DNA of 64,000 nucleotides from the NCBI GenBank assembly GCA_964650515.1, contig CAZYUB010000008.1, positions 16,126 to 80,125 on the forward strand, in the 5' to 3' direction. The position numbers and the translations under genes were made by a program. This document shows positions 7,683 through 62,543 of the stretch, piece after piece (the stretch's first letter is position 1; every line of letters starts with the position of its first letter). The notes below the pieces were generated by a model. That model worked only from the letters and a program-made list of their open reading frames with translations, was not told the DNA's origin and made no database searches. Source of the DNA: an uncultured Planctomycetia bacterium. Its GTDB lineage: Bacteria; Omnitrophota; Gorgyraeia; Pluralincolimonadales; Pluralincolimonadaceae.

Positions 7683-8833
7683 TACTGCGATTTCCTTCTC
7701 GTCGCTATATCTACCCACACCGCCAGCAGCAGTATCATGCCTTTAATAATATACTGGAAAGTTATATTCGTGTCCATAAGGCTCATGCCGTTATCGAGGC
7801 TTGCCATGATGAGCGCGCCGATCAGGGCCCCGAACACCGTGCCTTCGCCGCCCATTAAACTTGTTCCGCCTATTACCGCGGCCGCGATGACATCAAGCTC
7901 CATGCCCTGCCCCGCGGAAGTAGTCGCCGCGTTAAGCCGAGCGGTAAGCACGATACCCGCTATCGCGGTCAGCACGCCGAATATCGCGTAGAGCATCAAC
8001 ACCCTTTTCTTTATATTTATGCCTGATAAGGCGGCGGCATCCGGGTTCCCGCCGATCGCATATAGTTGCCTTCCAAAAACCGTATTCTGAGCGATAAAAC
8101 TGAACCCGAGGGCCAGAGCCATGACAAGCAATACCGCGTAAGGTACTCCCCTGTTATGCACCATGACCCAGAAGAATGCGCCTATAGCAGCGGATATCAC
8201 GGCTACCTTCGCGAGTTCGGCCGGCAACGGCGAGACCGTAAACCCGTATTTCTTCCGTTGTCTTCTCTTGTTAAGATCGAAGAGAACATATGCTGCGATC
8301 GTCGCTATGCCGACTATTAAACTGGCATCCGGCGACAGATAACTCTCACCGATGGCCTCGAAACGGTGAGAAAGCGGCGCGATCGTGGCGCCTTTAGTTA
8401 TCCCGAGAACAGCCCCCCTAAATATCATCATGCTCGCGAGGGTCACGATGAACGAGGGCACATACCTGTATGCTATCCAGAACCCGTGCCAAAGGCCTAT
8501 CAACAGCCCCGCGCCGCACGCGGTCAGTATCGCGGCTTCGGCGGGCCAGTTCATGTTGACCTGCAGGAACGCGCCTATAGCGCCGGCCAGCGCGGCCACG
8601 GAACCTACGGAAAGGTCGATATTTCGCGTGACAATGACAAGTGTCATGCCTATGGCTATTATCGCGACGGTGGCGGTCTGCAGGAAAAGGTTTGAGAGGT
8701 TGCGAGGGGTCAGGAATATCCCTTGTGTCAGGGACGTGAATATCAGCCATATCGCGACGAGCGCGATCAACATGGTAAACTTGCGTATCTTGTCCTGGGC
8801 TATCGCCTTCCTGAGTCCGGGTCTCTTTTCCAT
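7682..8833 (-). CDS. xylH: sugar ABC transporter permease (XylH/RbsC family)
   Basis: 383 aa polytopic membrane protein of the monosaccharide ABC permease type; third gene of the F-G-H set. Confidence 0.8.
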
Positions 8834-19833: not shown

Positions 19834-21150
19834 ATGGGACACTTAAGGGCAGCAGCAATAGTGGTGTGTTTTGCGATCGTCGCGGTGCTCGCTTCGCAGG
19901 CGGACGCGAGAACACTGGATTACGGCAGCGTCATAAACCGTACCGCGAACATGACCGGCGATCATGATGCGATCAGGCTCGCCCGCCAATACGGGCTCGA
20001 TATCCTGAACCTGACATGGGAGGATACGGGCAGGTACAAGAACTCGAGCGTAGGGCCCAACATAAGCGATATGACGATACAGGTCCAGCAGAAGGACCCG
20101 TATTCGGGCAATTATAACCTGACCTGCATGCCCGTCATACGGTTCCCGAATTTTTCAGACAGGACCGGCGACGTCGACCTCGACAAGCTCTATATCCTCG
20201 TCGGCAACGAGAGGGGTAATAACCTGCAACGCGTGTCATTGCGCGAATTCCTTGGCGATATACGCAAATATATGAGCGAGCCCGACTCATGGAAAGGCGG
20301 CCGCAGGTCCCTGCTCGCGCCGCGCGATTCCCATGTGCTGGTCAGCGCGCAGGCATGTTTCCTGCCGATACCCAAGGAAGGCATAGCGGAATTCAACCCG
20401 GTTTTGTTCAACTACCAGTCGACCGAAGGTGATCCCGCAGTCCTTACCATCCTCGCTACGCGAGAGGGCACGAGCGTTACGGTCATCGATAACAAACGCG
20501 ATGGCTTCAACACCGGCGGCGTATGGGGCCAGCGCCTCTTCTTCAACCAGGACGGCGAGCGCGCGAGCCTTACCGGAAAACGTCTCAGCGATTACCTCGG
20601 GAACAACGATGAAGGTTATTCGGCCGACAGCGGGCCGCACGAGACCGAAGCTCTGAATATGGTGATGCTGATACAGGTCCCCTTAAAGCAGAAGAAACCG
20701 ATGAGGCTCGGTTATGCCTGCGATATGTGCGCGGCTATGCCGGTGTTCAAAAGCGAGTGCGAAAAGAAATATAAGGAAGCCGGAAACGTGGAGAACGCCG
20801 TTATCGGGCACGGCAGGGTCGAAGGGCCGTTCACCGAGATCGCGGGGCTCGATATCGAGCGCGACCCGGCATATCCGATAAGGGTCACCGTGCAGTTCTA
20901 CAAGGCGACAAGCAACGGCATAGTGACGGAGCAGGACATGAAACAGATAGCGGAGCAGATCGAGAAAGTATACGCCAAGGCGGACTATGTGGGCAGCCTC
21001 GTAGTCGGCGGCGACACGCACCGCCCGACGGAATATACGGGCGACAAGAACAAGCCGTGCAACTGGTGGAGGGAATTCTGGAAGAGGCATAATGCGAACA
21101 TGGGTAATACCTGCAGGCCGTCGACACGCCCCGAGTGGGGATTAGATTAA
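19834..21150 (+). CDS. secreted hypothetical protein (signal peptide); the only plus-strand gene
   Basis: Strong RBS (AAAGGAGGAAGCC-ATG); cleavable signal MGHLRAAAIVVCFAIVAVLASQADA; 438 aa with no recognisable motif. Confidence 0.6.
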   Translation: MGHLRAAAIVVCFAIVAVLASQADARTLDYGSVINRTANMTGDHDAIRLARQYGLDILNLTWEDTGRYKNSSVGPNISDMTIQVQQKDPYSGNYNLTCMPVIRFPNFSDRTGDVDLDKLYILVGNERGNNLQRVSLREFLGDIRKYMSEPDSWKGGRRSLLAPRDSHVLVSAQACFLPIPKEGIAEFNPVLFNYQSTEGDPAVLTILATREGTSVTVIDNKRDGFNTGGVWGQRLFFNQDGERASLTGKRLSDYLGNNDEGYSADSGPHETEALNMVMLIQVPLKQKKPMRLGYACDMCAAMPVFKSECEKKYKEAGNVENAVIGHGRVEGPFTEIAGLDIERDPAYPIRVTVQFYKATSNGIVTEQDMKQIAEQIEKVYAKADYVGSLVVGGDTHRPTEYTGDKNKPCNWWREFWKRHNANMGNTCRPSTRPEWGLD

Positions 21151-22263
21151 ACCGTCGGCGATATCCTTGACGATGCCTGCGATGGACAGGCATCCGGTCA
21201 ACCCGGGCGATTCGATCCCGATAAGGTCGATGAGCCCGGGAAAACCTTTTTCGGATTCTTCTTTTATCACGAAATCCCTGAAATCCTCGCCGGGGCCCTG
21301 CAGTTTCGGCCTTATGCCCGACGTATCCGGGCTCAGGTCATCCGGCGATATAAAAGGAAGGAAAGTCCTCGCGCTATCGTAAAATCCTTTTCTCTTTGAC
21401 GCGTCGACGCCGTAATCTATGCGATTCACGTATTCTTCGTCCGGCCCGAGCCTGACGCCTCCGCCGAGGTCGGGCGTTGCGTGTATCCCGAGCCCCGCCC
21501 CCTTCTTTTTAGGCACCGGATACACGAGCCTGCTTATCATCTTCGCCTTCGACGCGCTTACGCGGAAGTAATCCCCCTTGCACGGCTTTATCGCGTATTC
21601 TGCGCTGTCGAGCCCCGCCATCGCCGCAATCCTGCCTGAATCGAGCCCGGCACTGTTTATCAGTATCCTGGTGTGGAAATCCAGCTCTCCGCCGTCGGTA
21701 TCTTTCACCGTTACCTTGTAACCGCCCGCGGCCTTCCCTATGCGCGTCACTTCCGTATTATATGTGATAGTCCCGCCGCGGGACTTGAACTTGCGCTCAA
21801 GGTCCTTCATGAGGCCATGCGTATCCACTATTCCCGTTGACGGCGACCATATCGCGGCTTCGGCGGATATGTTCGGCTCTAGCTTATTGGCGTCTTCCGC
21901 CGATATCAGTTCAAGGCCGGGGACCCCGTTCTCCGTCCCTCTTTTGAAAAGCGCCTCGAGGTCCGGTATCTCTTCTTTGTCCACCGCGACGATGAGCTTG
22001 CCGGTCTTCTTATGCGGGATATTGTTCGCGAGGCAGTATTCGTAAAGCAGCCTGTTGCCTTCTACGCAAACCCTTCTCTTCAACGAGTCCTTCGGATAAT
22101 ATATGCCTGCGTGGATGACTTCGCTGTTGCGCGAACTCGTCTCGCGCCCGAACGAATCGTGCCTCTCTATGAGGAACATATCACTGTATTTTACGGACAA
22201 TGCCGCCGCGGCAGCCAACCCGACGACGCCCGCGCCGATGACCGTTATTTCCGTCTTTTCCAT
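21142..22263 (-). CDS. FAD-dependent oxidoreductase, L-2-hydroxyglutarate oxidase/dehydrogenase-like
   Basis: N-terminal VIGAGVVGLAAA dinucleotide fold; DAO-family architecture. Confidence 0.7.
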   Translation of the reverse strand: MEKTEITVIGAGVVGLAAAAALSVKYSDMFLIERHDSFGRETSSRNSEVIHAGIYYPKDSLKRRVCVEGNRLLYEYCLANNIPHKKTGKLIVAVDKEEIPDLEALFKRGTENGVPGLELISAEDANKLEPNISAEAAIWSPSTGIVDTHGLMKDLERKFKSRGGTITYNTEVTRIGKAAGGYKVTVKDTDGGELDFHTRILINSAGLDSGRIAAMAGLDSAEYAIKPCKGDYFRVSASKAKMISRLVYPVPKKKGAGLGIHATPDLGGGVRLGPDEEYVNRIDYGVDASKRKGFYDSARTFLPFISPDDLSPDTSGIRPKLQGPGEDFRDFVIKEESEKGFPGLIDLIGIESPGLTGCLSIAGIVKDIADGLI

Positions 22264-22267
22264 TTGC

Positions 22268-23479
22268 TTATAAGTATACTATATCATCGGGATGATACAA
22301 AGAAAGAAAAAGGAGCATGTACTCCTTCAGGTGGCGTGTTATGAGGAAATTGTTCTTCACGTGTTCCCTGCCGTTCTCGCCGAGCTTGCGCGCGTAATCC
22401 GGGCTGTGCAGCAACTGTTTCAGCGAGAAACCGGCGCCTTCTATCGAGTTGCATAGCAATCCCGAATACTTGTGCGCTATCTGGAGAGGTATCCCCCCGA
22501 CGTTCGACGCGACGACCGGTTTCGCTTTCCACAACGCTTCCGATACCGTCAGCCCGAACCCTTCCCGCAGGGATTTCTGCATTATGACGGTCGAGGCCCT
22601 CTGCAGAGCGTTTATCTCTATGTCGTTCTGCGCAAGCAGCAATATATGTATATCGGGATCGTCCTTGGCGGCCTCCCTGACCTCAAGAAGGACTTCCGTG
22701 CTCTCCGGATCGTCGGAGGCGCCGCCTCCGGCGAGCACGAGTCGGCAATCGGAGTATCTCTTCACCTGCTTGTAGACCTGTATCACCCCGAGCGGGTCCT
22801 TCAACCTGTCGAAACGCGATATCTGCGTCACTATCGGCTTGTCCTTCGGGATGCCGTATTTTTCCAGCACCGCGTCTATCGTCTCCTGCGGCAGATCCTT
22901 GTTCTTGTCGCTAAGCGGGTCTATCGACGGGGATATCAGGAACTGCCTTATCGGCAATTTTTGCGAGAACGCGGGCGCAGAGAAGACGGACGCGTCATAC
23001 TTGTCGATATAACCCCTGAGGAAATCCCACACCCTTTTATCGGGTTCGGATACGTCGACATGGCAACGCCATACCCATTTGTTGCCTGCCTTTTTGTCCA
23101 CAAGCGCTACCGGCTGGGGGTCGTGTACGAAGACGACGTCGCCGTACGTATTGAGATCCTCTATATTGCTGCGGCTTGTCTCGAGGAAGATATCGAAGTC
23201 CTGGTCGAGCAATTCGACATTGACGCCGTGGAGGGCGTTATGGAATTTCTTCGTCGCCTCGAAGAACCTCTCCCCCCCTTTGATGAAATCCCATCTTGCG
23301 TCGACACCGAGTTCCTTCAGCATCGGCACCATCCTGCTGAGTCTCTCGGCCACGCCGCCGCCCACGGATGTGGACTGTATAGTCTGGATCACCTTGCCCT
23401 TCAGCTTCTCGGCAAGGAGCCTCAGGTCGTCTATCTGCGGCTGCCCGACCACGGGTATATATTCGTCTATCTTTGCCAT
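22268..23479 (-). CDS. treT: trehalose glycosyltransferring synthase-like GT4 glycosyltransferase
   Basis: STSVGGGVAE...FHNALHG N-terminal region collinear with archaeal/bacterial TreT; GT4 C-terminal Rossmann half. Confidence 0.7.
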   Translation of the reverse strand: MAKIDEYIPVVGQPQIDDLRLLAEKLKGKVIQTIQSTSVGGGVAERLSRMVPMLKELGVDARWDFIKGGERFFEATKKFHNALHGVNVELLDQDFDIFLETSRSNIEDLNTYGDVVFVHDPQPVALVDKKAGNKWVWRCHVDVSEPDKRVWDFLRGYIDKYDASVFSAPAFSQKLPIRQFLISPSIDPLSDKNKDLPQETIDAVLEKYGIPKDKPIVTQISRFDRLKDPLGVIQVYKQVKRYSDCRLVLAGGGASDDPESTEVLLEVREAAKDDPDIHILLLAQNDIEINALQRASTVIMQKSLREGFGLTVSEALWKAKPVVASNVGGIPLQIAHKYSGLLCNSIEGAGFSLKQLLHSPDYARKLGENGREHVKNNFLITRHLKEYMLLFLSLYHPDDIVYL

Positions 23480-23480
23480 C

Positions 23481-24152
23481 TCAGGAGGATGCCCTTGTTT
23501 TAATTATGCTGACCATCCTGTTCCTCAGGCCCTCGAGCGTGAACGTATACGGGTCCAGCTGGGATATCTCCCTCGCTATGCGTTCGTCCCCTACCGAGGT
23601 CCTTATCCAGTTGGAAAAATCGTTCGTGTTCTTCTCGAGCCTCAGGCGCGCCTCGAATATGTGATAATAGATCGAATCTATGGTGACCTTGCCCAGCATA
23701 TCCGCGAATTCACCGAGGTCATGCGCGGTATATTTCGTCGATATCACGAAGCTTATCGACTTCATGAAATGGAACTCTTCGTTCTCCCCGGAAAACCTGA
23801 CTTTTGCCATCGGGTTCTTTGCCAGGTATGTTTCTATGGTCGCGGCTATCTTCTCCCTTAGGCTGCGGATAGTGCTGAACTGTACGACATCGATGCTCGC
23901 GAGCCGCTCCCCGAGTTCGTCCTCGCCGAGGACCTCGGTTACCCAATAAGCAAAATCATTCGGGGGTTCGGGCGAAAGGTACTGGTGCTGCTGCAGGAAC
24001 CTGTGCGTATGGTGATAGATGCAGGAGCCGTTGACCTCTTTGACGAGCTCGAGCAGCTGGCCGAGCGTCGATGCCCTCAGGCCGGTCAACTCGGTAAGAT
24101 GCATCCTCGTATAGAATACAAAGGGCTCTTTGGCTGTCCCTGTCTCCGCCAT
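23481..24152 (-). CDS. conserved hypothetical protein inside the trehalose operon
   Basis: 223-aa ORF packed between treT and otsB on the same strand; no known motif. Confidence 0.5.
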   Translation of the reverse strand: MAETGTAKEPFVFYTRMHLTELTGLRASTLGQLLELVKEVNGSCIYHHTHRFLQQHQYLSPEPPNDFAYWVTEVLGEDELGERLASIDVVQFSTIRSLREKIAATIETYLAKNPMAKVRFSGENEEFHFMKSISFVISTKYTAHDLGEFADMLGKVTIDSIYYHIFEARLRLEKNTNDFSNWIRTSVGDERIAREISQLDPYTFTLEGLRNRMVSIIKTRASS

Positions 24153-24156
24153 TCGG

Positions 24157-24903
24157 CTATTCCCTCTCCAGGCGCCCCGCCTGCCTTATGAACCTTATGA
24201 CTTCCTTATAGTCCTTCAGGGAATAAGCGGCCTTCGTCTTGCCCGGCCTCCCGACAAAAACCGTTATCCCCTTCTTGCCCAGCGCCGCAAAAGCGTCCTC
24301 GTCGGTAGTGTCATCGCCGATATACACCGGCAGGACCGGCTCCTTGACGCCAGCGGATGGCCGATGTTTTGCCAGCAACCACATTATGAGCTTGCCTTTA
24401 TCCCAGTCAACCGGAGGTTTTATCTCCAGCACCATCTTGCCTGTGCCTGCCTTGACCTTTCCTCCGGCAATATAACGCGCCGTCGCTTCCCTGAATGCCT
24501 TCCTGATGCGGGGAATATCCTTACGCCCCGCCAGCCTGTAATGAACGCTTAGAGTATAGCCCTTGTCTTCGAGGACCACGCCGTCTATCCCGGCCAGGCC
24601 CCTGCGCAGGTCCTGCGCTATCTTTTTTACGAGTTTACTGAAGCCTGCGGGGACAAAGCTCCTGGATTTGATGCCGGGGCCGCTGACCTCGAGCCCGTGG
24701 TTGCCGGAATACACTATACCTTTGACCCCGACCATCTTCTTTATGTCTTTAAGCGACCTGCCGCTTATGACAGCCAGCCTGCATCCGCCGTCCAGGGCCA
24801 GCCTGCGCAAGAGGCCCCTCGTACTTTTCGGGATGACCGCCTTTCCGGGGGTATCCGCGATCGGGACCAGGGTACCGTCATAATCGAGGAACAGGTATAC
24901 CAT
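24157..24903 (-). CDS. otsB: trehalose-6-phosphate phosphatase (HAD family)
   Basis: FLDYDGTL HAD motif I and IGDDTTDEDAF motif IV. Start set to the internal Met so that start and otsA stop overlap by 1 nt. Confidence 0.85.
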   Translation of the reverse strand: MVYLFLDYDGTLVPIADTPGKAVIPKSTRGLLRRLALDGGCRLAVISGRSLKDIKKMVGVKGIVYSGNHGLEVSGPGIKSRSFVPAGFSKLVKKIAQDLRRGLAGIDGVVLEDKGYTLSVHYRLAGRKDIPRIRKAFREATARYIAGGKVKAGTGKMVLEIKPPVDWDKGKLIMWLLAKHRPSAGVKEPVLPVYIGDDTTDEDAFAALGKKGITVFVGRPGKTKAAYSLKDYKEVIRFIRQAGRLERE

Positions 24904-27137
24904 TATTCTTTTTTCAATGAGGTGAGCTCCGTCACGATGCTGCCGGCCCACTTGAATACGTTGTTATCCCTCACGATATTGCGCATATTTTCCATGCGCT
25001 TCCTCTTGTCTTCTTCCGGCATCTCTATGGCCGTTTTTATCGCGTCGGAGAACTCCTCAATGGAGTAAGGGTTGATCTGCACCGCATCGGTCAGCTCCTT
25101 TGCCGCCCCGGTGAATCGGCTCAGTATCAGGACGCCGTCGAGGCTCTTGTTCGACATAACGTACTCTTTCGCGACGAGGTTCATCCCGTCGTGGAGCGAG
25201 CTTACGATGCAGATATCTGCGATAGCATAATACGGCTTTATCTCTTCCGGCGAAAAATGCTTTTTCAGGTATATGACCGGTTTCCAGTCGCCGTCGGAAT
25301 GCTTCCAGTTCACTTTCTCGACAGCTTCATCTATCTCCGCTATCAGATCGTGGTAACGTTTTATATGCGTCCTGCTCGGGGCCGCAAGCTGCACGAGGAC
25401 GAACTTCCCCTTATATTGAGGGTATTTCTCGAGGAACCTGTCGACCGCAGAGATCCTCTCGACGAGGCCCTTGGTATAATCGATCCTTTCGACGCCGACG
25501 GCCACTATCTTGCCTTTCAGCTCGAATTCCTCTTTAAGGCCGTTGATCGCGCTCATGTCCTGCTTGGCGCTGTCCTCCATGAAGCTGTCTACGCTTATCG
25601 GGAAAGCCCGGACGAACGTCTCTGACCCGGAGCGGACGATGCTGAATTTTTCCGTGTCAACTCGCGACTCAAGCAGCCTGTTGGCGGTATCAAGGAAATT
25701 ATTGCAATGGTACTGGACATGGAACCCTATCAGGTCGCACCCGAGCATCCCGTCGAGTATCTCTTTCTGGTAAGGGCATGTCGCGAATATCTCCGGGTTT
25801 GGCCACGGTATATGCCAGAAGAGCGCTATCGTCGCGTTCGGCTGCTTCTCTTTTATCATCTTCGGCAGAAGCGTAAAATGGTAATCCTGTATGAATATGA
25901 ACGCGTTTTTCGAAGGAAGCTCTTCGAGGATGGCGTCCGCGAATTTCTGGTTCACTTCTTTGTACATCCCCCAGTCCCAATCCCTGAAGACGGGCCGCGT
26001 ATGTGTTATGTGGCAAAGGGGCCATAAGCCCTCGTTCGAGAAACCGTAGTAATAACCCTGCTCCTCCTCCTTCGAGAGCCACACCCTTTTGAGTATATAA
26101 AGGTCCTCGCCCGGCGGCACCGGAAGCTTGTTCTTCGAATTCACGAACTTCCTGTCCTCGTTCCCGCTGCCATGGGCTATCCATGTGCCTCCGCACGCGC
26201 GCAATATCGGGTCTATCGCGGTTACTACGCCGCTCGCGGGGCGTATGCATTTCGTTTTGCCCGTCTCGTCTTCGCTGACATGCATATACGGTTCCCTGTT
26301 CGAGACGACATAGAGGGCATTCTCTCCGAGTTTCGCGAGTACAAGGTCCCGGAGCTTCTCCTGCGTCCAGAGCTCCTCATTCTTCAGCCGTGCCTGGGCC
26401 TCGCCCGATATGGTCTTGCGCGCTATCCTCAGGCTCAATGCTATCTGTTCCACTTCGCTGGCAAGTTTCCCGAAAGCGCCTTTCTCCTTGGTTATAGGAT
26501 GCTGCTCGTCGGTCTCTCCCTTCTGGAAACTGTGGAACCAATCGGTAAGCTGGAGTATCGGTAGTATGAAGATCTGCCTTTGCAGCATCAGCATTACGAG
26601 CGCGATGGACACAACGAGGGTTATCAAGGCCGTGCTAATATGCTTCCACAAGCCGGCCAGCGTCGTAAACACATACGACGTGTCATATATGACCTCGACG
26701 ACGCCCAGCTTGTTGTTCTCATCATCGGTTATCGGAAGGACATAACTGTATACCGAAAATTCCTTGAACTTTTCGAGCGCTCCCCTCGGTGCCCCTCCTT
26801 CCAGCGATTCCTTGACGTAGGGTTTGTCCTTATGCCCCCAGTCCGCGATACGGGAAGTTATGGAGAGTATGTTCCCGTTCCCGTCATAGATAACGCATCC
26901 CTGGAGCCTCTCCCTCTTCTGGAAACTCTCGGTGAGCCGGTTGGCCGACCTGAGGTCGTTGTTAGCAAGGATATACCTCGCGGAAAGCTCCGTGCTCTCC
27001 GCAACTGCCCTCGCTTTCCTTTGCAGGTCGTCCATGAGCTTGCCTTCCTCATAATTGACCTGCACGATGCCGAAGACGGTAAAGACCGCGGCAACGATTA
27101 TGAGTATGGGCAGTATAAAGAGAAGTACTCGCCTCAT
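24903..27137 (-). CDS. otsA: membrane sensor/HAMP domain fused to alpha,alpha-trehalose-phosphate synthase (GT20)
   Basis: C-terminal ~470 aa is a full OtsA (GLWPL, FFLHIPWP-like, LHDGMNLVAKEY). N-terminal ~270 aa has TM1, a ~140-aa extracytoplasmic domain, TM2 and a HAMP-like helix pair. Confidence 0.85.
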   Translation of the reverse strand: MRRVLLFILPILIIVAAVFTVFGIVQVNYEEGKLMDDLQRKARAVAESTELSARYILANNDLRSANRLTESFQKRERLQGCVIYDGNGNILSITSRIADWGHKDKPYVKESLEGGAPRGALEKFKEFSVYSYVLPITDDENNKLGVVEVIYDTSYVFTTLAGLWKHISTALITLVVSIALVMLMLQRQIFILPILQLTDWFHSFQKGETDEQHPITKEKGAFGKLASEVEQIALSLRIARKTISGEAQARLKNEELWTQEKLRDLVLAKLGENALYVVSNREPYMHVSEDETGKTKCIRPASGVVTAIDPILRACGGTWIAHGSGNEDRKFVNSKNKLPVPPGEDLYILKRVWLSKEEEQGYYYGFSNEGLWPLCHITHTRPVFRDWDWGMYKEVNQKFADAILEELPSKNAFIFIQDYHFTLLPKMIKEKQPNATIALFWHIPWPNPEIFATCPYQKEILDGMLGCDLIGFHVQYHCNNFLDTANRLLESRVDTEKFSIVRSGSETFVRAFPISVDSFMEDSAKQDMSAINGLKEEFELKGKIVAVGVERIDYTKGLVERISAVDRFLEKYPQYKGKFVLVQLAAPSRTHIKRYHDLIAEIDEAVEKVNWKHSDGDWKPVIYLKKHFSPEEIKPYYAIADICIVSSLHDGMNLVAKEYVMSNKSLDGVLILSRFTGAAKELTDAVQINPYSIEEFSDAIKTAIEMPEEDKRKRMENMRNIVRDNNVFKWAGSIVTELTSLKKE

Positions 27138-27138
27138 G

Positions 27139-28194
27139 CTATCGGGCCCCTTCCTGTTCGTAGTTTATCGCCCTTATCGGATACGGTATGACTATGCCCT
27201 CTTTATTATACCTCTCGTGCAGCCTCTTTACAAACTCATGTTTTATGAGGTACTGGTCGACAAACTCCTTTGCCCTCAGGATGACAGAGAAGTTTATGCT
27301 GAAATCCCCGAAGGTATGATAACGTATGAACGGCTCAAATCCGGGCAAGCCCCCGGACACTTGCTCCATGACCTCTTTCGCCACCTCGCACGTCACTTTC
27401 TCGACCTTCTTGAGATCGCTATTATAATGGACCCCGAGGTTTACAAGCACCGCCATCTCTTTTTCCGGCAGGTAATAATTCGTCGTGATCACCTGCGTCA
27501 ATTTGGCGTTCGGGACGAGGATGACATTGTTAGCCAGCATCCTTATCTTCGTGCTCCTCCAGGTTATATCGCTGACATAGCCCTCCTCCCCGGTCTCGAG
27601 TTTTATGTAATCGCCTATCTTTATCTGCCTGGCGGCAACGATATGGAAACCGGCGAACAGGTTCGAGAGCGAATCCTGCAACGCAAGCGCAACGGCAAGG
27701 CCTCCTATGCCCAAAGTGGCCAGGATAGGCGTGATCGCTATGCCGAGGTTATTCAATACAAGCAGCAGGCCGACGCCGAATATTATTATCCTGCTTATGT
27801 TCTGCGTGAGCGATGTGACCGGCAACGCGGATTCTATCGCGCTCGAACGCGAAACTATAAGCCTTGTGGCTATATGCGAAAGCGCGATCATGACCGATAT
27901 TGAACCCAGCACGAACAGCGCTTTTCCCCCGATATCAACCCACTTGGCAGGAAGCGAAGAGATCCCGAGCCCAAAATATATGCCGAGCATAAGGCACCAT
28001 ATAATGAACGGGCCTCTGGTTGCGGCAATGATTATGTCGTCTATATCGGTCTTGGTCTTGCTTGCCAAATGCAGGAAATGCCTGAATATAATGCCTCTCA
28101 ACACATAACCGAGCAAGACGGTCCCGAGGCAAACCAACGACGGAAGTATATAGGCCGCTGTACCGTTGAGATTCTGTAAAATAAGCTCCTTCAT
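27139..28194 (-). CDS. mscS: small-conductance mechanosensitive channel, MscS family
   Basis: Three N-terminal TM helices plus the conserved MscS pore and beta domains; RBS AGGAGGG. Confidence 0.85.
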   Translation of the reverse strand: MKELILQNLNGTAAYILPSLVCLGTVLLGYVLRGIIFRHFLHLASKTKTDIDDIIIAATRGPFIIWCLMLGIYFGLGISSLPAKWVDIGGKALFVLGSISVMIALSHIATRLIVSRSSAIESALPVTSLTQNISRIIIFGVGLLLVLNNLGIAITPILATLGIGGLAVALALQDSLSNLFAGFHIVAARQIKIGDYIKLETGEEGYVSDITWRSTKIRMLANNVILVPNAKLTQVITTNYYLPEKEMAVLVNLGVHYNSDLKKVEKVTCEVAKEVMEQVSGGLPGFEPFIRYHTFGDFSINFSVILRAKEFVDQYLIKHEFVKRLHERYNKEGIVIPYPIRAINYEQEGAR

Positions 28195-28235
28195 GCGATA
28201 TCCCTCCTGAAACTAAAAAAAGCGCCCTCCCGCTT

Positions 28236-28278
28236 ACACGAGATGGCGGCCCGACCATCGTAATGCCTCCCGGAGCAA
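28236..28278 (-). repeat. conserved leader module copy 1 (CTCCGGGAGG-N6-ATGGTCGGGCCGCCATCT) in the mscS 5' leader
   Basis: 19-nt core identical to the copy at 54801..54820; flanking similarity ~40 nt. Confidence 0.7.
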
Positions 28279-28304
28279 CCTATTTGCCCGGGACCCGATT
28301 ATCC

Positions 28305-28333
28305 ATTATATTGACATCGGATGGACATAGCAA
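28305..28333 (-). promoter_or_regulatory. sigma70-type promoter of mscS leader (TTGCTA-17-TATAAT)
   Basis: Hexamers and spacing. Confidence 0.5.
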
Positions 28334-28353: not shown

Positions 28354-29391
28354 TCAATCCCTGTTGATAAAATGTATCATATCCGTCAGCTTCCCGTAGC
28401 TGTGGAAATCAAAATACATGACGAGCCTCGGAAGATGGGGGTACTCGCCCTTCTCTATCTCTTCCTTCAGCGGGGGCGATAGTTTTATCTCACCCTCCGT
28501 AAGGATACCCTTGAACTTCCTGTTAATGGCTGCCAGCGTCTTATCGGATATCTTCCTGTTCAGGCGCAGGACCGTCCGGCCCGACACATACCTTATCGAA
28601 TGGTATACCCTGTAGAATTCCTCTATCAGCCTGATCGCCTCGTCGGCCGTATTCACTATCCTGAAGAGGCTGAGGTCCTCTTTCTCTATGTACCCGTTCC
28701 TCAGCAGCTCATTGTTCACGAAACGCTTCCAGACCTCCCAATATGTCGAGCCCGCCGGCTCCATCATGATTATCGGCCTCGGCTTCGATTTGCCCGTCTG
28801 TATAAGCGTCAGCATCTCGAATCCCTCGTCATTAGTGCCGAACCCGCCCGGGAATAGGACGGTCGCATCGGTCTCCTTTATGAAGATGAGCTTTCTCGTG
28901 AAGAAATACTTGAAGCTTATTATCTTCTGTTTTTCGTATATGAACGGGTTGGGTTTCTGCTCGAACGGCAGGCGGATGTTAAGCGCGAATTCCATGCCCA
29001 TGTTCGCGCCTTTATTGCCGGCCTCCATTACGCCGGGGCCCCCGCCGGTAACGACCATATACCCCTTGCCGGTTATCTTCCTCGCGAAATCCTCCGCCAT
29101 CTTGTATTCCGCGGAAGAGGGCTTTGACCTCGCCGAACCGAATATCACTGCCTTCTTCACCTGCCTGTACGGCGCGAATATCTTGAACGAATACCTGAGC
29201 TCCTTAAGCGTGTTGTTAACGAGCTTAAGGTCCCCCTTGTCGTCGGATTCACGCCCCAATTTGACGGCGGTGGTGATTATCTCGCGCAGGATAGCCTCCG
29301 TCTCTGTGGAGCATGATTCGCAGGTAAGGTCGTTTATCAACCCGTCGACGCTCTTGTCGCCTATCTTATAATCCCCCGGGATCTTCTTCAT
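28354..29391 (-). CDS. LOG-family (TIGR00730, lysine-decarboxylase-like) nucleotide-binding protein, long type
   Basis: GGGPGVMEAGNKGA and PGGFGTNDE signature motifs. Confidence 0.8.
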   Translation of the reverse strand: MKKIPGDYKIGDKSVDGLINDLTCESCSTETEAILREIITTAVKLGRESDDKGDLKLVNNTLKELRYSFKIFAPYRQVKKAVIFGSARSKPSSAEYKMAEDFARKITGKGYMVVTGGGPGVMEAGNKGANMGMEFALNIRLPFEQKPNPFIYEKQKIISFKYFFTRKLIFIKETDATVLFPGGFGTNDEGFEMLTLIQTGKSKPRPIIMMEPAGSTYWEVWKRFVNNELLRNGYIEKEDLSLFRIVNTADEAIRLIEEFYRVYHSIRYVSGRTVLRLNRKISDKTLAAINRKFKGILTEGEIKLSPPLKEEIEKGEYPHLPRLVMYFDFHSYGKLTDMIHFINRD

Positions 29392-30761
29392 GTCTTTAGT
29401 TTGCCTTCCAGTTCCTTTATTCGCTCCTTAAGCTCTATCATCTTAAGCTCCCTGTCAACGGCTACCCTGTGGAACTTCTCCATGTCGTTCATCTTGTCGC
29501 GCAGTTCCTTCTGCGCCTTCTTGAGCGCCGAGATATCCTTCGCTATATGGACGGACCCCATGAACTCGCCGTTATCATCGTATATCGGCGATGTCGAAAC
29601 GAGCAGCGGCAGTCCTATTCTCGGGTCGAATACCTCTTCCACGTGCGTTTTCTTGTCGACGATTGTGAGCTGGTGCGGGCAGCCCGGCCATGGCTTCTCG
29701 GCCCCATGGATTATCCTGAAGCATTTCTCGCCGATGATATCTTCCGACTTCATTTTTAGAAAATTGGTCAACGCCTTGTTCACCCTCACTATCCTGCTGT
29801 CCTTATCTATGACAAATATAAGGTCCGTAATGGAGTCAAAAGTCGTCGACCAGTCCTTTGCCGCCTTACTTATCTCCTCCTCCGCATCCATCCGCTCCTC
29901 TTCGGTACGCAGGAGCGTCCTTGCGCTCATCATTACGATAATACAGAAGACGACCGCGTTAAAGAACGCGACAAGCGACACTCCGAGCTCATTTTGAATG
30001 ATACCGTATCTTTCTCCCGCCAACTTAAGCCATCCGAAGAACGGCGGCAATATAAGCGCGAACGGCAGGATCTTCCGCAGCATTATGCCCGCGGAAAGGT
30101 CTGAACACATGATCCTCATGAAACCCCTGTTCCCGGACGCAAATATCACGCCTACGGACAACAGCAGGAAAAACACGGCGGTATGCAGCGCCATAGCCGT
30201 AAAGCTATACTGTAAAATATACAGGATCTTTACCCCGAAGATATAACCGATCAGGTTCTGGTAGGCAAGCAATCCTGCAACCGCAGAGACAGCCTGCGCG
30301 GCGTAAATGCTGCGTTCCGTCTTTCCCCGGACCAAGGCCAGGGAAATGTTCAGCAGGATGAAATTTGCCGCTGTGACCGGGGCCATCCTTCCTAAATGCG
30401 TAGTAAGGATAGCGCCGGCAGGCTCCCTGAACAACAGCTGGTCGATACCCAGCTCAACGCCTGCGGCATATTCGATCACCGTCAGGAGCCCTATTATGCC
30501 CGCGGCCAAAGAAGCGGCGAGCGCAATACCTTCGCTTTTATTGTCCCTGCGAGGCCCGGAGGAGATGATATAAAGCGATATACCTGTAAGCATGAAAGCC
30601 AGCGCGGTATTGAACTTCATTGTGACCATGCCCGGAAAGACGCTTTTCAGGATACCGATATCCAGGAACCACCCGGCCAATACGAGGAAACCTCCGCATA
30701 CGGCAAGCAGCGCTGTGGCCACGGAGACATTCCTGTAATTCTTTTCCCTGGCCTCTTTCAT
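29388..30761 (-). CDS. polytopic membrane sensor with cytoplasmic PAS domain and C-terminal coiled coil (no output domain)
   Basis: ~6 TM helices in the first 280 aa, then a PAS fold (SITDLIFVIDKDSRIVRVN...), then a coiled coil. Confidence 0.6.
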   Translation of the reverse strand: MKEAREKNYRNVSVATALLAVCGGFLVLAGWFLDIGILKSVFPGMVTMKFNTALAFMLTGISLYIISSGPRRDNKSEGIALAASLAAGIIGLLTVIEYAAGVELGIDQLLFREPAGAILTTHLGRMAPVTAANFILLNISLALVRGKTERSIYAAQAVSAVAGLLAYQNLIGYIFGVKILYILQYSFTAMALHTAVFFLLLSVGVIFASGNRGFMRIMCSDLSAGIMLRKILPFALILPPFFGWLKLAGERYGIIQNELGVSLVAFFNAVVFCIIVMMSARTLLRTEEERMDAEEEISKAAKDWSTTFDSITDLIFVIDKDSRIVRVNKALTNFLKMKSEDIIGEKCFRIIHGAEKPWPGCPHQLTIVDKKTHVEEVFDPRIGLPLLVSTSPIYDDNGEFMGSVHIAKDISALKKAQKELRDKMNDMEKFHRVAVDRELKMIELKERIKELEGKLKT

Positions 30762-51043: not shown

Positions 51044-52486
51044 TCAGGACAACCTTCCCAGGAGTTCCCGTAATGAAACCAGCGCTATAGCCGTCTGTTG
51101 GTCGGATAACGCGTACGGGATGATTAGCGCATCACCATGGAGTAAAGCACCGCATGAATATACCACGTTCGGGACATATCCGGAGCGGGTATCGTCCTCC
51201 CAATGGATAAGCGGCTCCTTCAACCTTCCGATCACTTTTGAAGGGTCATCGAGGTCGAGCAAAGCTGCGCCGATCGAATACTGGCACATCGGGCCGACTC
51301 CGTGGGTCAGCAGCAGCCACCCGCGGCCGGTCTCTATCGGTGAACCGCAATTGCCTATCTGCACGAACTCCCACGGGCATAAGGGCTCCATGATCGGGAC
51401 GGCTTCGTGCCAGAAATGTATATTGTCGGAATACATCAGGAAGAGCCTTTCATTATCGTTACGGGATATCATAGCATAAAGGCCGTTTATCCTGCGAGGG
51501 AACAGCGCCATGCCTTTGTTGACCGCCGCCTTGCCGTTCAGCGTGATCATTTTGAAGCGGATAAAATCTTCCGTCTCCATTATCTGCGGCAGTATTGCCC
51601 TTCCGTCATACGCCGTATAGGTGGCGTAGTACCTGCCTGTCCCGTCATCGTCCCTGAAGAACACGAAACGCGCGTCTTCCATCCCGTTCTGCTCGCTCGG
51701 TGAAAGCGGGAACAACACGCGTTCCGAAAGCGGCGACCCGCACATGAAGTCCGCCTCATAATTGCACCGGGCAAGCCAAAGTATCTTTTCGCAGGTTATC
51801 TTATCCGTATGCGCAAGCGGCTGGTGGCCGGCGATATATTCATTCGCCCTATCCTCGAGATGCCCCATCGTGAACTGGTCCTGGAGCGGCCCCGTAATGA
51901 ATCCTGAACAATCGTTTTCCAGCCCCATCTCAAAAAGTTTCCTGACAAAACATGCCTTATCGTACAGCGTATTTGGTCTCGGTTCCGCGATACAAGCGAG
52001 GCCTGAAGCTTCGTCTATTGCTACTGATCCGTCCCGGCCCGCGACTCCAGAGCGGAATGTCAGCGTGGATATATGCCCTTCACCCGTTGCGCGCAATGAA
52101 ATGATAAAACGCAGTGAACCCTCGGGGATCCCCGATTGGTCGGGGTGCGCTATAATAGACGGATTGAACAGGGCGGTTGATTCATACGAACGCTCTCCGA
52201 TGAAATATGCCCCGATAAGCAGCCTTTGCGTCCTTGATGGGGAGAAATCGGCAGGCATATGGGAACGGACGACCTCGAATTGGCGCTCGAGTATAGTTTC
52301 GAAATTATAGTGCCGCGCCGAAAAATCCTTTATTGTCTTCCCAAGCTCTTCATCCGCGGCAGGCGCGCCAAGCGCCATGACACGCGCGATTATTTTAGGC
52401 ACTCTCGACTGGTCGCCGGGAATATACGGCCTGATTATGACACGCTTGCTGTCGGGAACGATCGATACGCCTGCGTCCTTTATCAT
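51044..52486 (-). CDS. glycoside hydrolase family 130 (GH130)-like (DUF377) glycoside phosphorylase/hydrolase with ~200-aa N-terminal extension
   Basis: C-terminal GH130 signatures (YVPNVVYSCGALLHGDALIIPYALSDQQT, GSPIETGRGWLLLTHGVG). Confidence 0.7.
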   Translation of the reverse strand: MIKDAGVSIVPDSKRVIIRPYIPGDQSRVPKIIARVMALGAPAADEELGKTIKDFSARHYNFETILERQFEVVRSHMPADFSPSRTQRLLIGAYFIGERSYESTALFNPSIIAHPDQSGIPEGSLRFIISLRATGEGHISTLTFRSGVAGRDGSVAIDEASGLACIAEPRPNTLYDKACFVRKLFEMGLENDCSGFITGPLQDQFTMGHLEDRANEYIAGHQPLAHTDKITCEKILWLARCNYEADFMCGSPLSERVLFPLSPSEQNGMEDARFVFFRDDDGTGRYYATYTAYDGRAILPQIMETEDFIRFKMITLNGKAAVNKGMALFPRRINGLYAMISRNDNERLFLMYSDNIHFWHEAVPIMEPLCPWEFVQIGNCGSPIETGRGWLLLTHGVGPMCQYSIGAALLDLDDPSKVIGRLKEPLIHWEDDTRSGYVPNVVYSCGALLHGDALIIPYALSDQQTAIALVSLRELLGRLS

Positions 52487-54774
52487 TCTTCCAACGGCTC
52501 CTTGAGGCTCTCGAGGACATTTTCCATCTGCGTCATTTCCGTAAGGGATAAAAGGAACGAGAGGGTGGATTCTGCGCCCTGGTTGCGGTTCACCCTGTTT
52601 ATATGGAGGCCGTCACAGCAACCGCCCGTAACCGGATCATATAAGGAGATCCCGAGATCGTTGCTCCCGAGGAACCACTGGAAGACATTCAAGGCCTCCT
52701 CATACCACGCCTTATCCCTTGTCACGCGATAGGCGTCCAGGCATGCCGATACGGTGGAATAGGCCTCGACCGGCTGCTGGTCAAAAACGGGCTTTACCCC
52801 TCCCTTGCGGTATTCACCGTCGGTACCTACCGGCTGGAAATGGCCGCGCGGTGATGTCTGTACTTTTGTAAGCCATTTCAGGGACTCTATCCCTGACTTC
52901 AGCATCTCCGCGTTATCGAGATCGTGCCCGCTCAAAAGCAGCGCGTGGGGAAGCCTGGCGTCGCAATATGTAAGGGATTCCTCAAACCACCGCCATTCGT
53001 CGCTATTGTTTGCCTTATACAGGTCGTAAAGCCGTGACGCGAGCGTCTGCAGGCAGTTACGCGCAAGCCTGTCGCCGTGAAAACGCTGCAGGTATTCATG
53101 TATGCCGAGTAGCGTAAAAGCCCATGCCCTGGGAGATGTGAACGACAATGTGGGAGCAAGGGCCTTTTCAAAAATTTCTACCGACATCTGGGTGAACCCC
53201 TCGTTCTTGGACTGCCCTATGCAGGTACCGATAGCCCATATCGCCCTACCGTGGCAATCTTCGCTCGGCACCTCTTCCTTCCAGTTCCGCTGGAACGTCA
53301 GGAAATTCCTGAATCGCCCGGCGGACGGGTCCCACGCATACGTGACAAACCCGAGGTAGCGGCTCGCGAGGTCGTTTATCTTTACGGGATTTATCGAGCC
53401 GAGATTCTCGAGCAGGACGGCCAGGATCAGCGCGCGCGCGTTATCATCCGTGCAATAACCTTCGGAAAAATTCGGGACATTGAACGTGGCATGCTGGAAG
53501 ACGCCTATAGAATCGGTCATCCGTATCAGATGGTCGAGTTTTATATCCGGCAATACCGGATACTCGTGCTCGAGAGGGTGCATCGTTATCTTCTTCTGCG
53601 CGACAGAGGGGCGTTTTGTCTTTGCTTCCTCGAAGATCGACGCGTATTTCGACCCGGTTTTGCTCCATATCATATCGCGGCCGAGAAGATAAGCGTTCTT
53701 GCGCATCGCGTTGCGTTCATTATCATTGGCAATGAGCTTTGTTATCGCCTGGGCCGTCGCCTCCGGGTCGTTGAACGGCACGAGGATACCCCTGCCGTCG
53801 CTGAGCAGTTCGGCGGCATGCCAATACGGAGTGGAGATGACAGCGTTGCCTACCCCGAACGAATAAGCAAGCGTGCCGGAAGTTACCTGGGCCTCCTCAA
53901 GGTACGGAGTGATATAAATATCCGCGAGCACGAGCAATTCTTTAAGTTCTTCGGGAGAAACGAAATGGTTATGGAAGATCACGTTCCCGGATATCCCGAG
54001 TTCATCGCAAAGGATCTGCAGGGAAAGCCTGTAGGCCTCACCTTCATGCCTCAACAGGTTCGGATGCGTGGCGCCGACGATAATGTACACCACGTTCGGA
54101 TACTCCTTTATGACTTTCGGGAGCGCGCGCAGGACTACCTCTATCCCCTTTCGCGGCGAAAGCAACCCGAACGTCAGGATAGTCGTCTTGCCCTCGACCC
54201 CGTACTGGTCCTTATAAAAATTCGGGTCAATAAAAGACACGTCCGGTATACCGTGCGGGACCAGCCTTATCTTGGACTTTTGCGCCTTATTTACCGACTC
54301 AAGGATATCGACGGCCTTTTGCGTCATTACTATCACGCTGTCCGAGAGGCTGATCAGCTCATCCATGACACGTTTCTGGCGCGCGGACGGATTCTTCAAT
54401 ACAGTGTGCAGGGTCGTTATGACAGGCATATTCAACTGGCGCAATAAAGCCAGTATATAGCTGCCGTCGTTGCCTCCGAAGATGCCGAATTCATGCTGCA
54501 GGCAAACGACATCGACATTATTGAGGTTCAGGAAGTCCGCGGCCGCTTTATACGAGTCTATGTTCTGTTCTTTGATCTCGAAGCGAACGCGTTCAGGGTA
54601 ATCATAACCTTCCTCGATATCCGTGACCGGTATAGCGAATACCTGGACAGATGGGTTCAGGGCCGCGAACGCCTCGCAAATATCGGTGGTAAAAGTCGCT
54701 ATACCGCAGCGCCTCGGCAGGTAATTTCCTATAAACGCTATTTTTTTTATCTCGTTTGCCATTGCCCTTCCCAA
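52483..54774 (-). CDS. GT4 glycosyltransferase fused to a C-terminal ~370-aa alpha/alpha-toroid (six-hairpin glycosidase-like) domain
   Basis: N-terminal 390 aa: GT4 Rossmann pair with EX7E-like region. C-terminal domain rich in W/aromatic residues, GH63/GH15-like. Track start is TTG at 54774; ATG MANEIKK at 54762 is equally plausible. Confidence 0.7.
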   Translation of the reverse strand: MGRAMANEIKKIAFIGNYLPRRCGIATFTTDICEAFAALNPSVQVFAIPVTDIEEGYDYPERVRFEIKEQNIDSYKAAADFLNLNNVDVVCLQHEFGIFGGNDGSYILALLRQLNMPVITTLHTVLKNPSARQKRVMDELISLSDSVIVMTQKAVDILESVNKAQKSKIRLVPHGIPDVSFIDPNFYKDQYGVEGKTTILTFGLLSPRKGIEVVLRALPKVIKEYPNVVYIIVGATHPNLLRHEGEAYRLSLQILCDELGISGNVIFHNHFVSPEELKELLVLADIYITPYLEEAQVTSGTLAYSFGVGNAVISTPYWHAAELLSDGRGILVPFNDPEATAQAITKLIANDNERNAMRKNAYLLGRDMIWSKTGSKYASIFEEAKTKRPSVAQKKITMHPLEHEYPVLPDIKLDHLIRMTDSIGVFQHATFNVPNFSEGYCTDDNARALILAVLLENLGSINPVKINDLASRYLGFVTYAWDPSAGRFRNFLTFQRNWKEEVPSEDCHGRAIWAIGTCIGQSKNEGFTQMSVEIFEKALAPTLSFTSPRAWAFTLLGIHEYLQRFHGDRLARNCLQTLASRLYDLYKANNSDEWRWFEESLTYCDARLPHALLLSGHDLDNAEMLKSGIESLKWLTKVQTSPRGHFQPVGTDGEYRKGGVKPVFDQQPVEAYSTVSACLDAYRVTRDKAWYEEALNVFQWFLGSNDLGISLYDPVTGGCCDGLHINRVNRNQGAESTLSFLLSLTEMTQMENVLESLKEPLEE

Positions 54775-54806
54775 AACAAAAAACCACCTGATCTTATATC
54801 AGATGG
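54771..54806 (-). terminator. intrinsic terminator or attenuator hairpin (CCAUCUGAU-AUAAG-AUCAGGUGG followed by UUUUUUGUUUU), 12 nt before the GT4-fusion start
   Basis: 9-bp stem including one G.U pair, then a U-tract. Confidence 0.65.
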
Positions 54807-54838
54807 CGGCCCGACCATCATAAAGCTCCTCCGGAAGT
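54797..54838 (-). repeat. conserved leader module copy 2 (TTCCGGAGGAG-N6-ATGATGGTCGGGCCGCCATCT) in the GT4-fusion 5' leader
   Basis: See copy 1; here the core overlaps the 5' arm of a 9-bp terminator hairpin. Confidence 0.7.
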
Positions 54839-54883
54839 ATTCGGGCTATCTCCGGACCCTTTATCATTTTCGCATACTTAAAG

Positions 54884-62195: not shown

Positions 62196-62225
62196 TACAA
62201 CTCCGCATTAAGTCGAATTCGGGTA

Positions 62226-62243
62226 TATGCTCTCGCGAGCATA
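62226..62243 (-). promoter_or_regulatory. LacI-type operator palindrome TATGCTCTCGCGAGCATA between promoter B and the GH start
   Basis: 17/18 symmetric, central CG; same GCTC-N4-GAGC core as 58013..58028. Confidence 0.55.
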
Positions 62244-62282
62244 AGCTTATCATACTTTCGTGCTTTGTCAAGTATGGCATAA

Positions 62283-62311
62283 AAAACCCCGATCGTTATG
62301 ATCGGGGTTTT
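62283..62311 (-). terminator. rho-independent terminator (AAAACCCCGATC-GUUAU-GAUCGGGGUUUU) after the low-GC island gene
   Basis: 12-bp perfect stem with a flanking A/U run; symmetric, so it could act bidirectionally. Confidence 0.8.
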
Positions 62312-62370
62312 CCCATTCAATCAAACCGCATTTATGACATTTGGGAAACCTCTCTGATTTAGCTGGCTTT

Positions 62371-62425
62371 ATTATAGGGGTAATACCTTACTATATCAAG
62401 GAATTTCGGGAATTAGAGAGGGATT
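62371..62425 (-). repeat. promoter cassette copy B (CCGAAATTCC-TTGATA-17-TATAAT) driving the discoidin-GH/LacI operon
   Basis: See copy A. Confidence 0.65.
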
Positions 62426-62543
62426 TCCTCGCTAAATATGTCCGTTTTGTCCGGTCTTTCTTGGCCGAAAATGACGTAACTATTTGAGGAATCGAAAGAT
62501 AAGGTTGTCCACACCTTGAGAAGCGGACAAAGAGCCAGCGCTT

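Follow-up and report, generated by a model that had tools for sequence, protein, structure and literature searches.

Cache and HAMP modules drive kinases, chemoreceptor arrays, nucleotide cyclases and phosphatases. The known regulation of the trehalose-6-phosphate (T6P) synthase OtsA is cytoplasmic and in mycobacteria involves allosteric metabolites. Here a gene is described in which the two are joined. It lies in a stretch of 64,000 nucleotides (nt), hereafter the window, from an uncultured bacterium assigned by GTDB to the Omnitrophota (assembly GCA_964650515.1, contig CAZYUB010000008.1, positions 16,126 to 80,125). The gene, called the sensor-otsA fusion (24903..27137, minus strand), pairs a known enzyme with a known sensor module, a combination of which no description was found. 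The gene is best read as encoding a dimeric receptor-enzyme in which a Cache/transmembrane (TM)/HAMP module gates T6P synthesis within a riboswitch-controlled operon for ion or osmotic stress, and we put the probability of this reading at roughly 0.58.

The closest described receptors are the sensor kinases of the WalK/CitA/DcuS/EnvZ type (TM1-PDC/Cache-TM2-HAMP-DHp-CA). The order and size of the sensor are the same in the fusion, which also shows sequence homology to HAMP kinases. Unlike these proteins, the fusion is without HisKA, HATPase_c and phosphorelay, and its HAMP output helix appears to enter a GT-B glycosyltransferase. The HAMP adenylate cyclase Rv3645 and the Cache-HAMP-GGDEF cyclases likewise carry an extracytoplasmic sensor, a TM/HAMP unit and a catalytic domain on one polypeptide, but the output of such second-messenger receptor-enzymes is a signalling nucleotide. 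In the fusion it is a primary-metabolism glycosyltransferase for the precursor of a compatible solute. A census of Cache domains, drawn only from proteins with canonical signalling outputs, found them exclusively with such outputs (PMC4822843).

On the side of the enzyme, the closest relatives are the soluble OtsA proteins (E. coli 1GZ5/1UQU, mycobacterial 5JIJ), with which the GT20 fold, all checked residues and a neighbouring otsB are shared. The fusion adds a membrane sensor of 274 amino acids (aa), which is predicted to anchor it in the membrane, and its dimerisation through the TM/HAMP region is probable. A comparable operon is msc-gt-tpsp of Thermoproteus tenax, where a separate glycosyltransferase activates the T6P synthase (TPS) by complex formation and a TreT route is also present (Zaparty et al. 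2013, PMC3634074). Both systems have a mechanosensitive channel and a TPS in one operon, the TPS/T6P phosphatase (TPP) and TreT routes, and an OrfY/DUF5752 homologue. In T. tenax, however, TPS and TPP form one fused protein, whereas here the TPS carries a transmembrane sensor and OtsB is a protein of its own. Genome papers on Omnitrophota mention trehalose synthesis just as a capacity (PMC8542988). Literature searches combining T6P synthase, OtsA or Glyco_transf_20 with HAMP, Cache or transmembrane found no paper on the fusion, and searches on DUF5752 and on OrfY with TreT likewise found no papers.

The fusion is encoded by a single uninterrupted open reading frame (ORF) of 744 aa with an ATG start, which is preceded by a Shine-Dalgarno-like GGAAGGGG. 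The TAG stop of the upstream gene mscS ends 1 nt before this ATG. The catalytic domain occupies aa 275-744 and, with the stop codon, positions 24903..26315 on the minus strand. Pfam PF00982 (GT20) matches aa 275-739 with an E-value of 5.8e-124 and 414.8 bits (gathering threshold 32.5), covering profile positions 3-472 of 473. The best PDB matches of this part are OtsA proteins, namely 5jij of M. thermoresistibile (E=7e-85) and 1gz5 of E. coli (E=6e-65). Identity to E. coli MG1655 OtsA, on which the residue register was checked, is 32%. The residues which we take, after the structures of Gibson et al., to be those for substrate binding and catalysis in E. coli OtsA are R9, G22, W40, Y76, W85, D130, H154, R262, K267, R300, D361 and E369. 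Their equivalents in the fusion are, in the same order, R281, G303, W319, Y363, W372, D418, H442, R551, K556, R589, D650 and E658, and all 128 fused proteins examined keep every one of them. By its domain and active site the GT20 part is a member of the T6P synthase family, and it is predicted to be catalytically competent.

The remaining 274 residues resemble the input half of a sensor kinase. In a Kyte-Doolittle scan with a 19-residue window just two segments of TM grade were found, at aa ~4-25 (TM1; 27063..27128, minus strand; hydropathy peak 3.14) and aa ~165-187 (TM2; 26577..26645, minus strand; peak 2.61), and the GT20 part contains none. TM1 is helical in both predicted models and TM2 falls within a helix spanning residues 154-205. 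The protein begins with MRR, and its enzyme needs cytoplasmic uridine diphosphate (UDP)-glucose and glucose-6-phosphate, so a topology with both termini inside and aa 26-164 outside is expected. That outer region (26646..27062, minus strand) is assigned to an extracytoplasmic single-Cache/PDC domain. It is followed behind TM2 by a HAMP-like unit at aa ~188-240 (26418..26576, minus strand), which comprises a helix with P193, a connector with G207 and a helix with E228, and by a helical linker at aa 241-274 (26316..26417, minus strand). The module is thus predicted from sequence and modelled fold to be TM1 - single Cache/PDC - TM2 - HAMP-like.

The predicted fold agrees with this layout. With an alignment of 61 sequences as input, AlphaFold modelled aa 1-274 at a predicted local distance difference test (pLDDT) score of 89.5 overall and 90-98 over aa 20-170. 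The model consists of a helix at 2-48, two short helices, strands 78-85 and 90-93, two further helices, strands 118-124, 127-137 and 143-152, a helix at 154-205, a loop at 206-220 and a helix at 221-254. The space between the TM segments is filled in this model by a long N-terminal helix and a five-stranded sheet of the PAS type, as in Cache domains. The best PDB match in Foldseek is the TM-Cache-TM-HAMP model 9a5d of WalK, with a query-normalised template modelling score (TMq) of 0.68 over 261 columns. For the ectodomain, target-normalised scores (TMt) are 0.78 to 4ywz (Staphylococcus aureus WalK), 0.72-0.74 to 2j80 (CitA) and 0.72 to 3by8 (DcuS). Foldseek probability is 1.00 to 4ywz and 5is1 (WalK), 3by8, 2j80 and 1p0z (CitA), and 4jgo (KinD), with TMt of 0.5-0.79.

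Homologues with other outputs support the same assignment. A search with aa 1-274 against 1.84 billion representative proteins gave 439 matches, among them HAMP-HisKA-HATPase_c kinases (P0330, P0331, P0348, P0360, P0361) and GGDEF cyclases (P0254, P0239), and these kinases and cyclases align collinearly with the fusion over aa 1-260. For kinase P0330 the collinear alignment extends over aa 1-261 (E=6e-18), and the part of this kinase that Pfam recognises as HAMP (188-236, E=1.3e-15) lines up with aa 188-237 of the fusion. P193 in the first HAMP helix, G207 in the connector and E228 in the second helix are at least 90% conserved in the 61 sequences. The fusion has the layout of a HAMP unit in the roughly 50 aa after its last TM segment: a helix to 205, the loop 206-220, a helix from 221 and the conserved Pro, Gly and Glu. 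When 61 family members were scanned with Pfam (E<=0.01), sCache_3_2 was found in 19, HAMP in 12 (best 1.3e-15), dCache_3 in 11, dCache_1 in 10, CHASE8 in 10 and Cache_WalK in 2. Domain scans of the fusion detected neither HisKA/DHp nor HATPase_c, and the NCBIfam match to WalK is weak and confined to the sensor part (aa 4-248). In terms of predicted domains the fusion protein is not a kinase, despite its sensor module of the kinase type.

In the linker between sensor and enzyme, W257, T258 and L262 do not vary in a set of 19 sequences that contains distant ones. Of 128 sequences, which include the distant clade, 119 have a spacing of 52 aa from E228 to N280 in the VVSNREP strand and 9 have one of 51 aa, and the length is fixed even between clades whose sensors are only 23-27% identical. 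A helical linker of fixed length is what would be expected of a mechanical relay, and this one stops only a few residues short of R281, which we take to be the equivalent of Arg9 of E. coli OtsA, the residue on strand beta-1 that binds the phosphate of glucose-6-phosphate. Among 121 Omnitrophota-type proteins the mean pairwise identity is 0.75 in TM1, 0.71 in the Cache domain, 0.63 in TM2, 0.76 in the HAMP-like unit, 0.70 in the linker and 0.80 in GT20. The values for Cache and HAMP lie close enough to that of the enzyme to suggest selection on the sensor. Invariant polar or aromatic residues of the Cache domain are R77, Y84, R96, W100, Y130, Y132, D138, D139, E148 and D152.

The fusion is old and widespread, being found in hundreds of genomes of uncultured Omnitrophota and Acidobacteriota. 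A full-length homology search returned more than 120 clusters (90% identity) of proteins of 743-745 aa, 70-99% identical to the fusion. Nearly all come from metagenome-assembled genomes of Candidatus Omnitrophota and are annotated merely as 'trehalose-6-phosphate synthase'. When one genome per GTDB species was scanned, at least 238 species-level genomes were found with the Omnitrophota-type N-terminal module, and the locus statistics that follow refer to the 80 best loci out of 238 genomes. Sensor and GT20 domain share one full-length ORF in 69 of the 80, while 10 are cut by a contig end and one (L061) is split. Among these loci, L005 (JBAZJG010000007.1, Ca. Omnitrophota bacterium SO_2017_LW4_113) is the counterpart of the window, at 99% identity. 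Homology searches with N-terminal queries gave just fragments of ~480 aa or less, which looks like an effect of word-index candidate selection; full-length members surfaced with the full-length query and in the representative search.

More distant GT20 fusions, with 23-30% identity in the sensor, are P0238, P0278, P0298, P0312 and P0337 (739-761 aa), and also P0236 (913 aa). According to cluster names and a further search, this second fusion clade belongs to Acidobacteriota (Terriglobales, Ca. Sulfotelmatobacter). In P0337, otsB again lies directly downstream. P0236, which comes from a Logan contig, carries an additional N-terminal sensor-like region of ~160-170 aa with a weak SMP_2 match before the Cache-TM-HAMP-GT20 core, and may be a double-sensor form. 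The interrupted ORF of L061 (8938-11235), the sole case among the 80, is broken between aa ~200 and the rest, and may be a sequencing error or a pseudogene.

These results bear out the core of the original prediction, which was made from the window's letters alone. It had proposed a complete OtsA behind ~270 aa of TM1, ectodomain, TM2 and a HAMP-like region, with the architecture of a signal transducer and a biosynthetic output; the Pfam GT20 match, the two TM segments, the Cache/HAMP fold of the WalK/CitA/DcuS type and the collinearity with HAMP kinases and GGDEF cyclases all agree with it. It had left the ectodomain open between a Cache fold and a four-helix bundle, and the fold comparison favours Cache. 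It had also called for a phylogenetic survey of HAMP-OtsA fusions, to which the genome scan and the Acidobacteriota clade contribute. Two findings were named that would have overturned it, a region free of TM helices and a separate gene joined by frameshift, and the topology prediction contradicts the first and the intact ORFs of other species refute the second.

In the window the fusion is the second gene of its operon. The first is mscS (27139..28194, minus strand), which encodes a small-conductance mechanosensitive channel of 351 aa with the Pfam domains MS_channel_1st, 2nd and 3rd. Downstream of the fusion and on the same minus strand follows otsB (24157..24903), a T6P phosphatase gene (TIGR00685, 177 bits with a cut-off of 68; Pfam Trehalose_PPase) whose ATG begins at 24903, so that stop and start share the sequence TAATG (24903-24905). 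Next come a gene for a protein of 223 aa of the DUF5752/OrfY family (23481..24152, minus strand; PF19027, 234.4 bits with a cut-off of 23) and a treT-like gene for a putative trehalose glycosyltransferring synthase of 403 aa (22268..23479, minus strand). The DUF5752 protein matches PDB 4cso_A ('OrfY protein, transcription factor') with E=1.4e-24 over aa 6-214. The treT-like protein has Pfam TreT_GT1 (PF21269; 3.3e-50, 170 bits with a cut-off of 27) and Glycos_transf_1 domains, and it scores 358.8 bits with the NCBIfam model TreT_Thcocales (NF041139), under the equivalog cut-off of 775. The last gene on the strand encodes a FAD (flavin adenine dinucleotide) oxidoreductase of the DAO family (21142..22263, minus strand; Pfam DAO 2.2e-60). 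It is found behind treT just in the four closest loci (L005-L008) and is therefore probably not part of the core.

The order otsB, DUF5752 and treT downstream of the fusion is kept in 49 of the 53 loci with enough flank. Among 52 loci, 14 have an mscS gene directly upstream of the fusion and 6 have one directly downstream, 20 in all. In L001 (9759-11419), and likewise in L054, genes for a CBS-domain protein and a Na+/H+ exchanger stand between the fusion and otsB within a riboswitch-led operon. The pairing of OrfY with treT, present in 49 of 53 related loci, is conserved far beyond Thermoproteales.

For the operon, the original prediction needs more revision. The overlap of the otsA stop and the otsB start was correctly seen, as were the genes behind the fusion, but the fusion does not head the operon, since mscS and a riboswitch lie upstream of it. 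What was called an attenuator-like leader proves to be a known riboswitch class, nhaA-I (RF03057), with a terminator platform, and the 223-aa unknown has a family, DUF5752/OrfY, and a solved homologue, 4CSO. The occurrence of OtsAB and TreT together was rightly noted, but it is not singular, given the precedent in Thermoproteus tenax (PMC3634074). A connection with osmotic or ionic stress finds support in the context, namely in the adjacency to mscS, the conserved otsB-DUF5752-treT block and the riboswitch.

The leader of mscS carries an nhaA-I RNA aptamer (28241..28296, minus strand), which belongs to the Li+-I/Na+-II riboswitch family and matches the full Rfam model (1-55) with 49.9 bits (threshold 37). 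Immediately upstream a sigma-70-like promoter, TTGCTA-17-TATAAT (28305..28333, minus strand), is suggested by a consensus scan as a pattern match at 10 of 12 positions. Behind the aptamer lies a terminator-like hairpin, GCCAUCUCGU-GUAA-GCGGGAGGGC followed by U7 (~28215..28247, minus strand), as seen in a terminator scan, in the centroid fold and in the sequence itself. The 5' arm of the hairpin overlaps the 3' strand of aptamer stem P2, so a ligand-stabilised aptamer should block termination, which would make this an ON switch. The leader thus appears to be a candidate anti-termination platform. The whole-leader fold was not more stable than those of shuffled sequences (z = -0.36), and for this reason the riboswitch call relies on the covariance model and not on energy.

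The class has been described by White et al. (2022), who found otsA downstream in 16 and mscS in 3 of 944 cases, suggested an osmotic role and called the link to otsA 'occasional' (PMC9646797). The leader here matches the class above its gathering threshold, and otsA and mscS, both among the downstream genes given in that work, follow it. The terminator platform, with an ON mechanism of the kind outlined above, was described for Na+-II variants and reported in Deltaproteobacteria only, whereas here a terminator-type platform is found in Omnitrophota; the paper does not mention a sensor fusion, and it places the ion-diagnostic nucleotide at position 54 of the D. propionicus construct (PMC9646797). 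The loci were also surveyed with a covariance model built from nine Rfam-confirmed copies. Of 74 loci, 32 have a riboswitch no more than 250 nt from the start of the fusion, with ~42 nt as the typical distance. In 12 more it precedes an upstream mscS and in 9 it lies 0.3-3 kb upstream, giving 44-53 of 74 in all.

Further copies of nhaA-I were noticed. A second one in the window (54801-54859, minus strand, 45.2 bits) lies 27 nt upstream of a gene for a 763-aa GT4 glycosyltransferase (52483-54774, minus strand) with ~400 unannotated C-terminal residues, and this gene is followed by one for a GH130 phosphorylase-like protein (51044-52486, minus strand). The unit may represent another ion-controlled pathway for a glycoside or compatible solute. 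L080 has tandem aptamers (8225-8294 and 8368-8429) before one fusion gene. Copies just downstream of treT, leading the next gene, are found in L054 (15674-15736), L021 (13982-14045), L078 (15014-15074) and L001 (14182-14244). The neighbourhood thus holds several ion-riboswitch units.

Upstream of the operon in the window lies a gene for a LOG/SLOG-family (lysine-decarboxylase-like) protein (28354-29391, minus strand), which is also present upstream of mscS in L005-L007. It overlaps by 4 nt a gene (29388-30761, minus strand) for a polytopic membrane protein of 457 aa with a C-terminal PAS domain and coiled coil and no recognisable output domain. The end of the window (62001-64000) has a guanine-cytosine content of 0.374, compared with 0.51-0.57 elsewhere, and may be foreign or non-coding DNA.

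The receptor-enzyme would work as follows. From a cytoplasmic N terminus, TM1 would lead to the periplasmic single Cache domain and TM2 back to the cytoplasmic HAMP-like unit, which the fixed-length helical linker would join directly to strand beta-1 of the T6P synthase, the strand carrying R281. By analogy with HAMP kinases, cyclases and chemoreceptors the protein would be a homodimer, and the same analogy suggests that a change at the Cache/TM module would be relayed through the HAMP bundle and the linker. By altering the acceptor site, domain closure or the way in which the two GT20 domains pair, the relay could turn T6P synthesis on or off. What the data establish is the architecture, the homology of the individual modules, the intact active site, the conservation, the synteny and the riboswitch, whereas dimerisation, allosteric coupling, the direction of coupling and the stimulus are inferred. 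The operon order, nhaA-I riboswitch > mscS > sensor-otsA > otsB > orfY/DUF5752 > treT, suggests two tiers of control. In the first, cytoplasmic Na+ or Li+ would open transcription through the riboswitch. In the second, the receptor module would tune the activity of the enzyme, after translation, to an envelope or periplasmic cue, most likely one tied to ionic or osmotic stress. OtsB would complete trehalose synthesis, and MscS would act as a release valve on down-shock. The well-conserved Cache domain (71% compared with 80% for the enzyme) suggests a periplasmic ligand or ion at least as much as membrane tension, and the direct membrane or osmotic sensing put forward in the original prediction would be one possibility.

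Several observations weigh against this reading. Pfam finds no HAMP (PF00672) match in aa 1-273 of the fusion even at E<=10, and its Cache matches stay under the gathering thresholds (dCache_3 18.2 with a threshold of 25.7, sCache_3_2 12.6 with 28.4), so that both assignments are made through transitive homology and predicted fold. Confidence is low over HAMP and linker (aa ~200-260) when the full-length monomer is modelled, with a pLDDT of 46-65 that falls below 50 at aa 245-253. The helix is broken at about aa 254-258 in this model and a straight coiled-coil relay is not evident. As OtsA is a new kind of HAMP output, the coupling is without mechanistic precedent. The context is also uneven: just ~38% of loci have an adjacent mscS, and 21 of 74 lack the riboswitch.

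Other explanations differ widely in how well they fit. That a small sensor gene and otsA were joined by frameshift or misassembly could appeal to the one ORF in 80 that is split, but more than 120 protein clusters, drawn from independent assemblies and sources, have the same ORF of 743-745 aa, it is full length in 69 of 80 species loci and the distant clade shares the architecture. This idea was dropped, having next to no chance of being right. It is also very improbable that the GT20 part makes something other than T6P, for example glucosylglycerol phosphate as GgpS does or a pseudoglycoside of the VldE kind, or that it is non-catalytic like plant class II TPS. NCBIfam scores below the equivalog cut-offs (TIGR02400 427.6 with 564.85; PRK14501 483.6 with 634) mark it as a divergent subfamily, and the GgpS model TIGR02398 also scores, at 322.6. 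The OtsA/TPSP models nevertheless rank higher, 12 of the 12 OtsA substrate or catalytic residues checked are retained, and the stop codon is overlapped by a bona fide T6P phosphatase gene, which scores above its TIGR00685 cut-off and lies behind the fusion in 49 of 53 loci.

The alternatives that accept a working enzyme on a true sensor-like module deserve more attention. An exapted former sensor might pass no signal and only anchor and dimerise OtsA at the inner membrane, with regulation left purely to the riboswitch; anchoring could then serve local trehalose production near MscS or the protection of the membrane. We consider this unlikely. Riboswitch control already exists in most loci, the HAMP of the fusion is too divergent for a direct Pfam match, and the model is of low confidence, with a helix break, between HAMP and enzyme, all as a passive tether would allow. 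Such a tether would, however, have no need of a 140-aa periplasmic domain with a mean identity of 71% and many invariant polar and aromatic residues, nor of a linker held at 51-52 aa across clades with 23-27% sensor identity. A shade less probable again is control of the chemoreceptor type by a periplasmic organic ligand unrelated to osmotic conditions, for example a carboxylate as in CitA/DcuS or a metabolite derived from a host or partner, with trehalose as a carbon store or signalling sugar. Omnitrophota have been described as needing other organisms to supply their substrates (PMC8542988). In fold the sensor comes closest to the ligand-binding PDC/sCache domains of CitA, DcuS and KinD, and the Cache domain is strongly conserved. 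The partners in the operon are nevertheless genes of osmotic or ionic stress (MscS, the Na+/H+ exchanger in L001, the Li+/Na+ riboswitch), and at 16-22% identity to CitA/DcuS the binding residues are too uncertain to be mapped reliably. Moreover, the best fold match is a Cache domain of the WalK type, which is not known to bind a small ligand.

The reading as a receptor-enzyme gated by its Cache/TM/HAMP module in an ion or osmotic stress operon would have several consequences. The wider claim, that Cache-HAMP gating of a GT-B glycosyltransferase, together with a Li+/Na+ riboswitch, defines a new class of receptor-enzymes under combined control by cytoplasmic ions AND a periplasmic cue, and that this is the standard OtsA of Omnitrophota and many Acidobacteriota, is tentative and has slightly less than an even chance in our view. 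If it is true, the rules of transmembrane signalling would have to be widened to admit a primary-metabolism glycosyltransferase as an output, and the formation of T6P or UDP would offer a very simple readout of how a conformational change in HAMP is converted into catalysis. Stress sensing would be wired straight to solute synthesis, without a kinase, a second messenger or a transcription step, and such post-translational gating would act far more quickly than the transcriptional route by which E. coli regulates otsBA. The formerly 'occasional' association of otsA with Li+-I/Na+-II riboswitches would also gain a physiological role. The fusion is the predominant form of OtsA in the almost wholly uncultured Omnitrophota and occurs in soil Acidobacteriota too, which makes it relevant to the survival of these abundant groups under salinity and desiccation.

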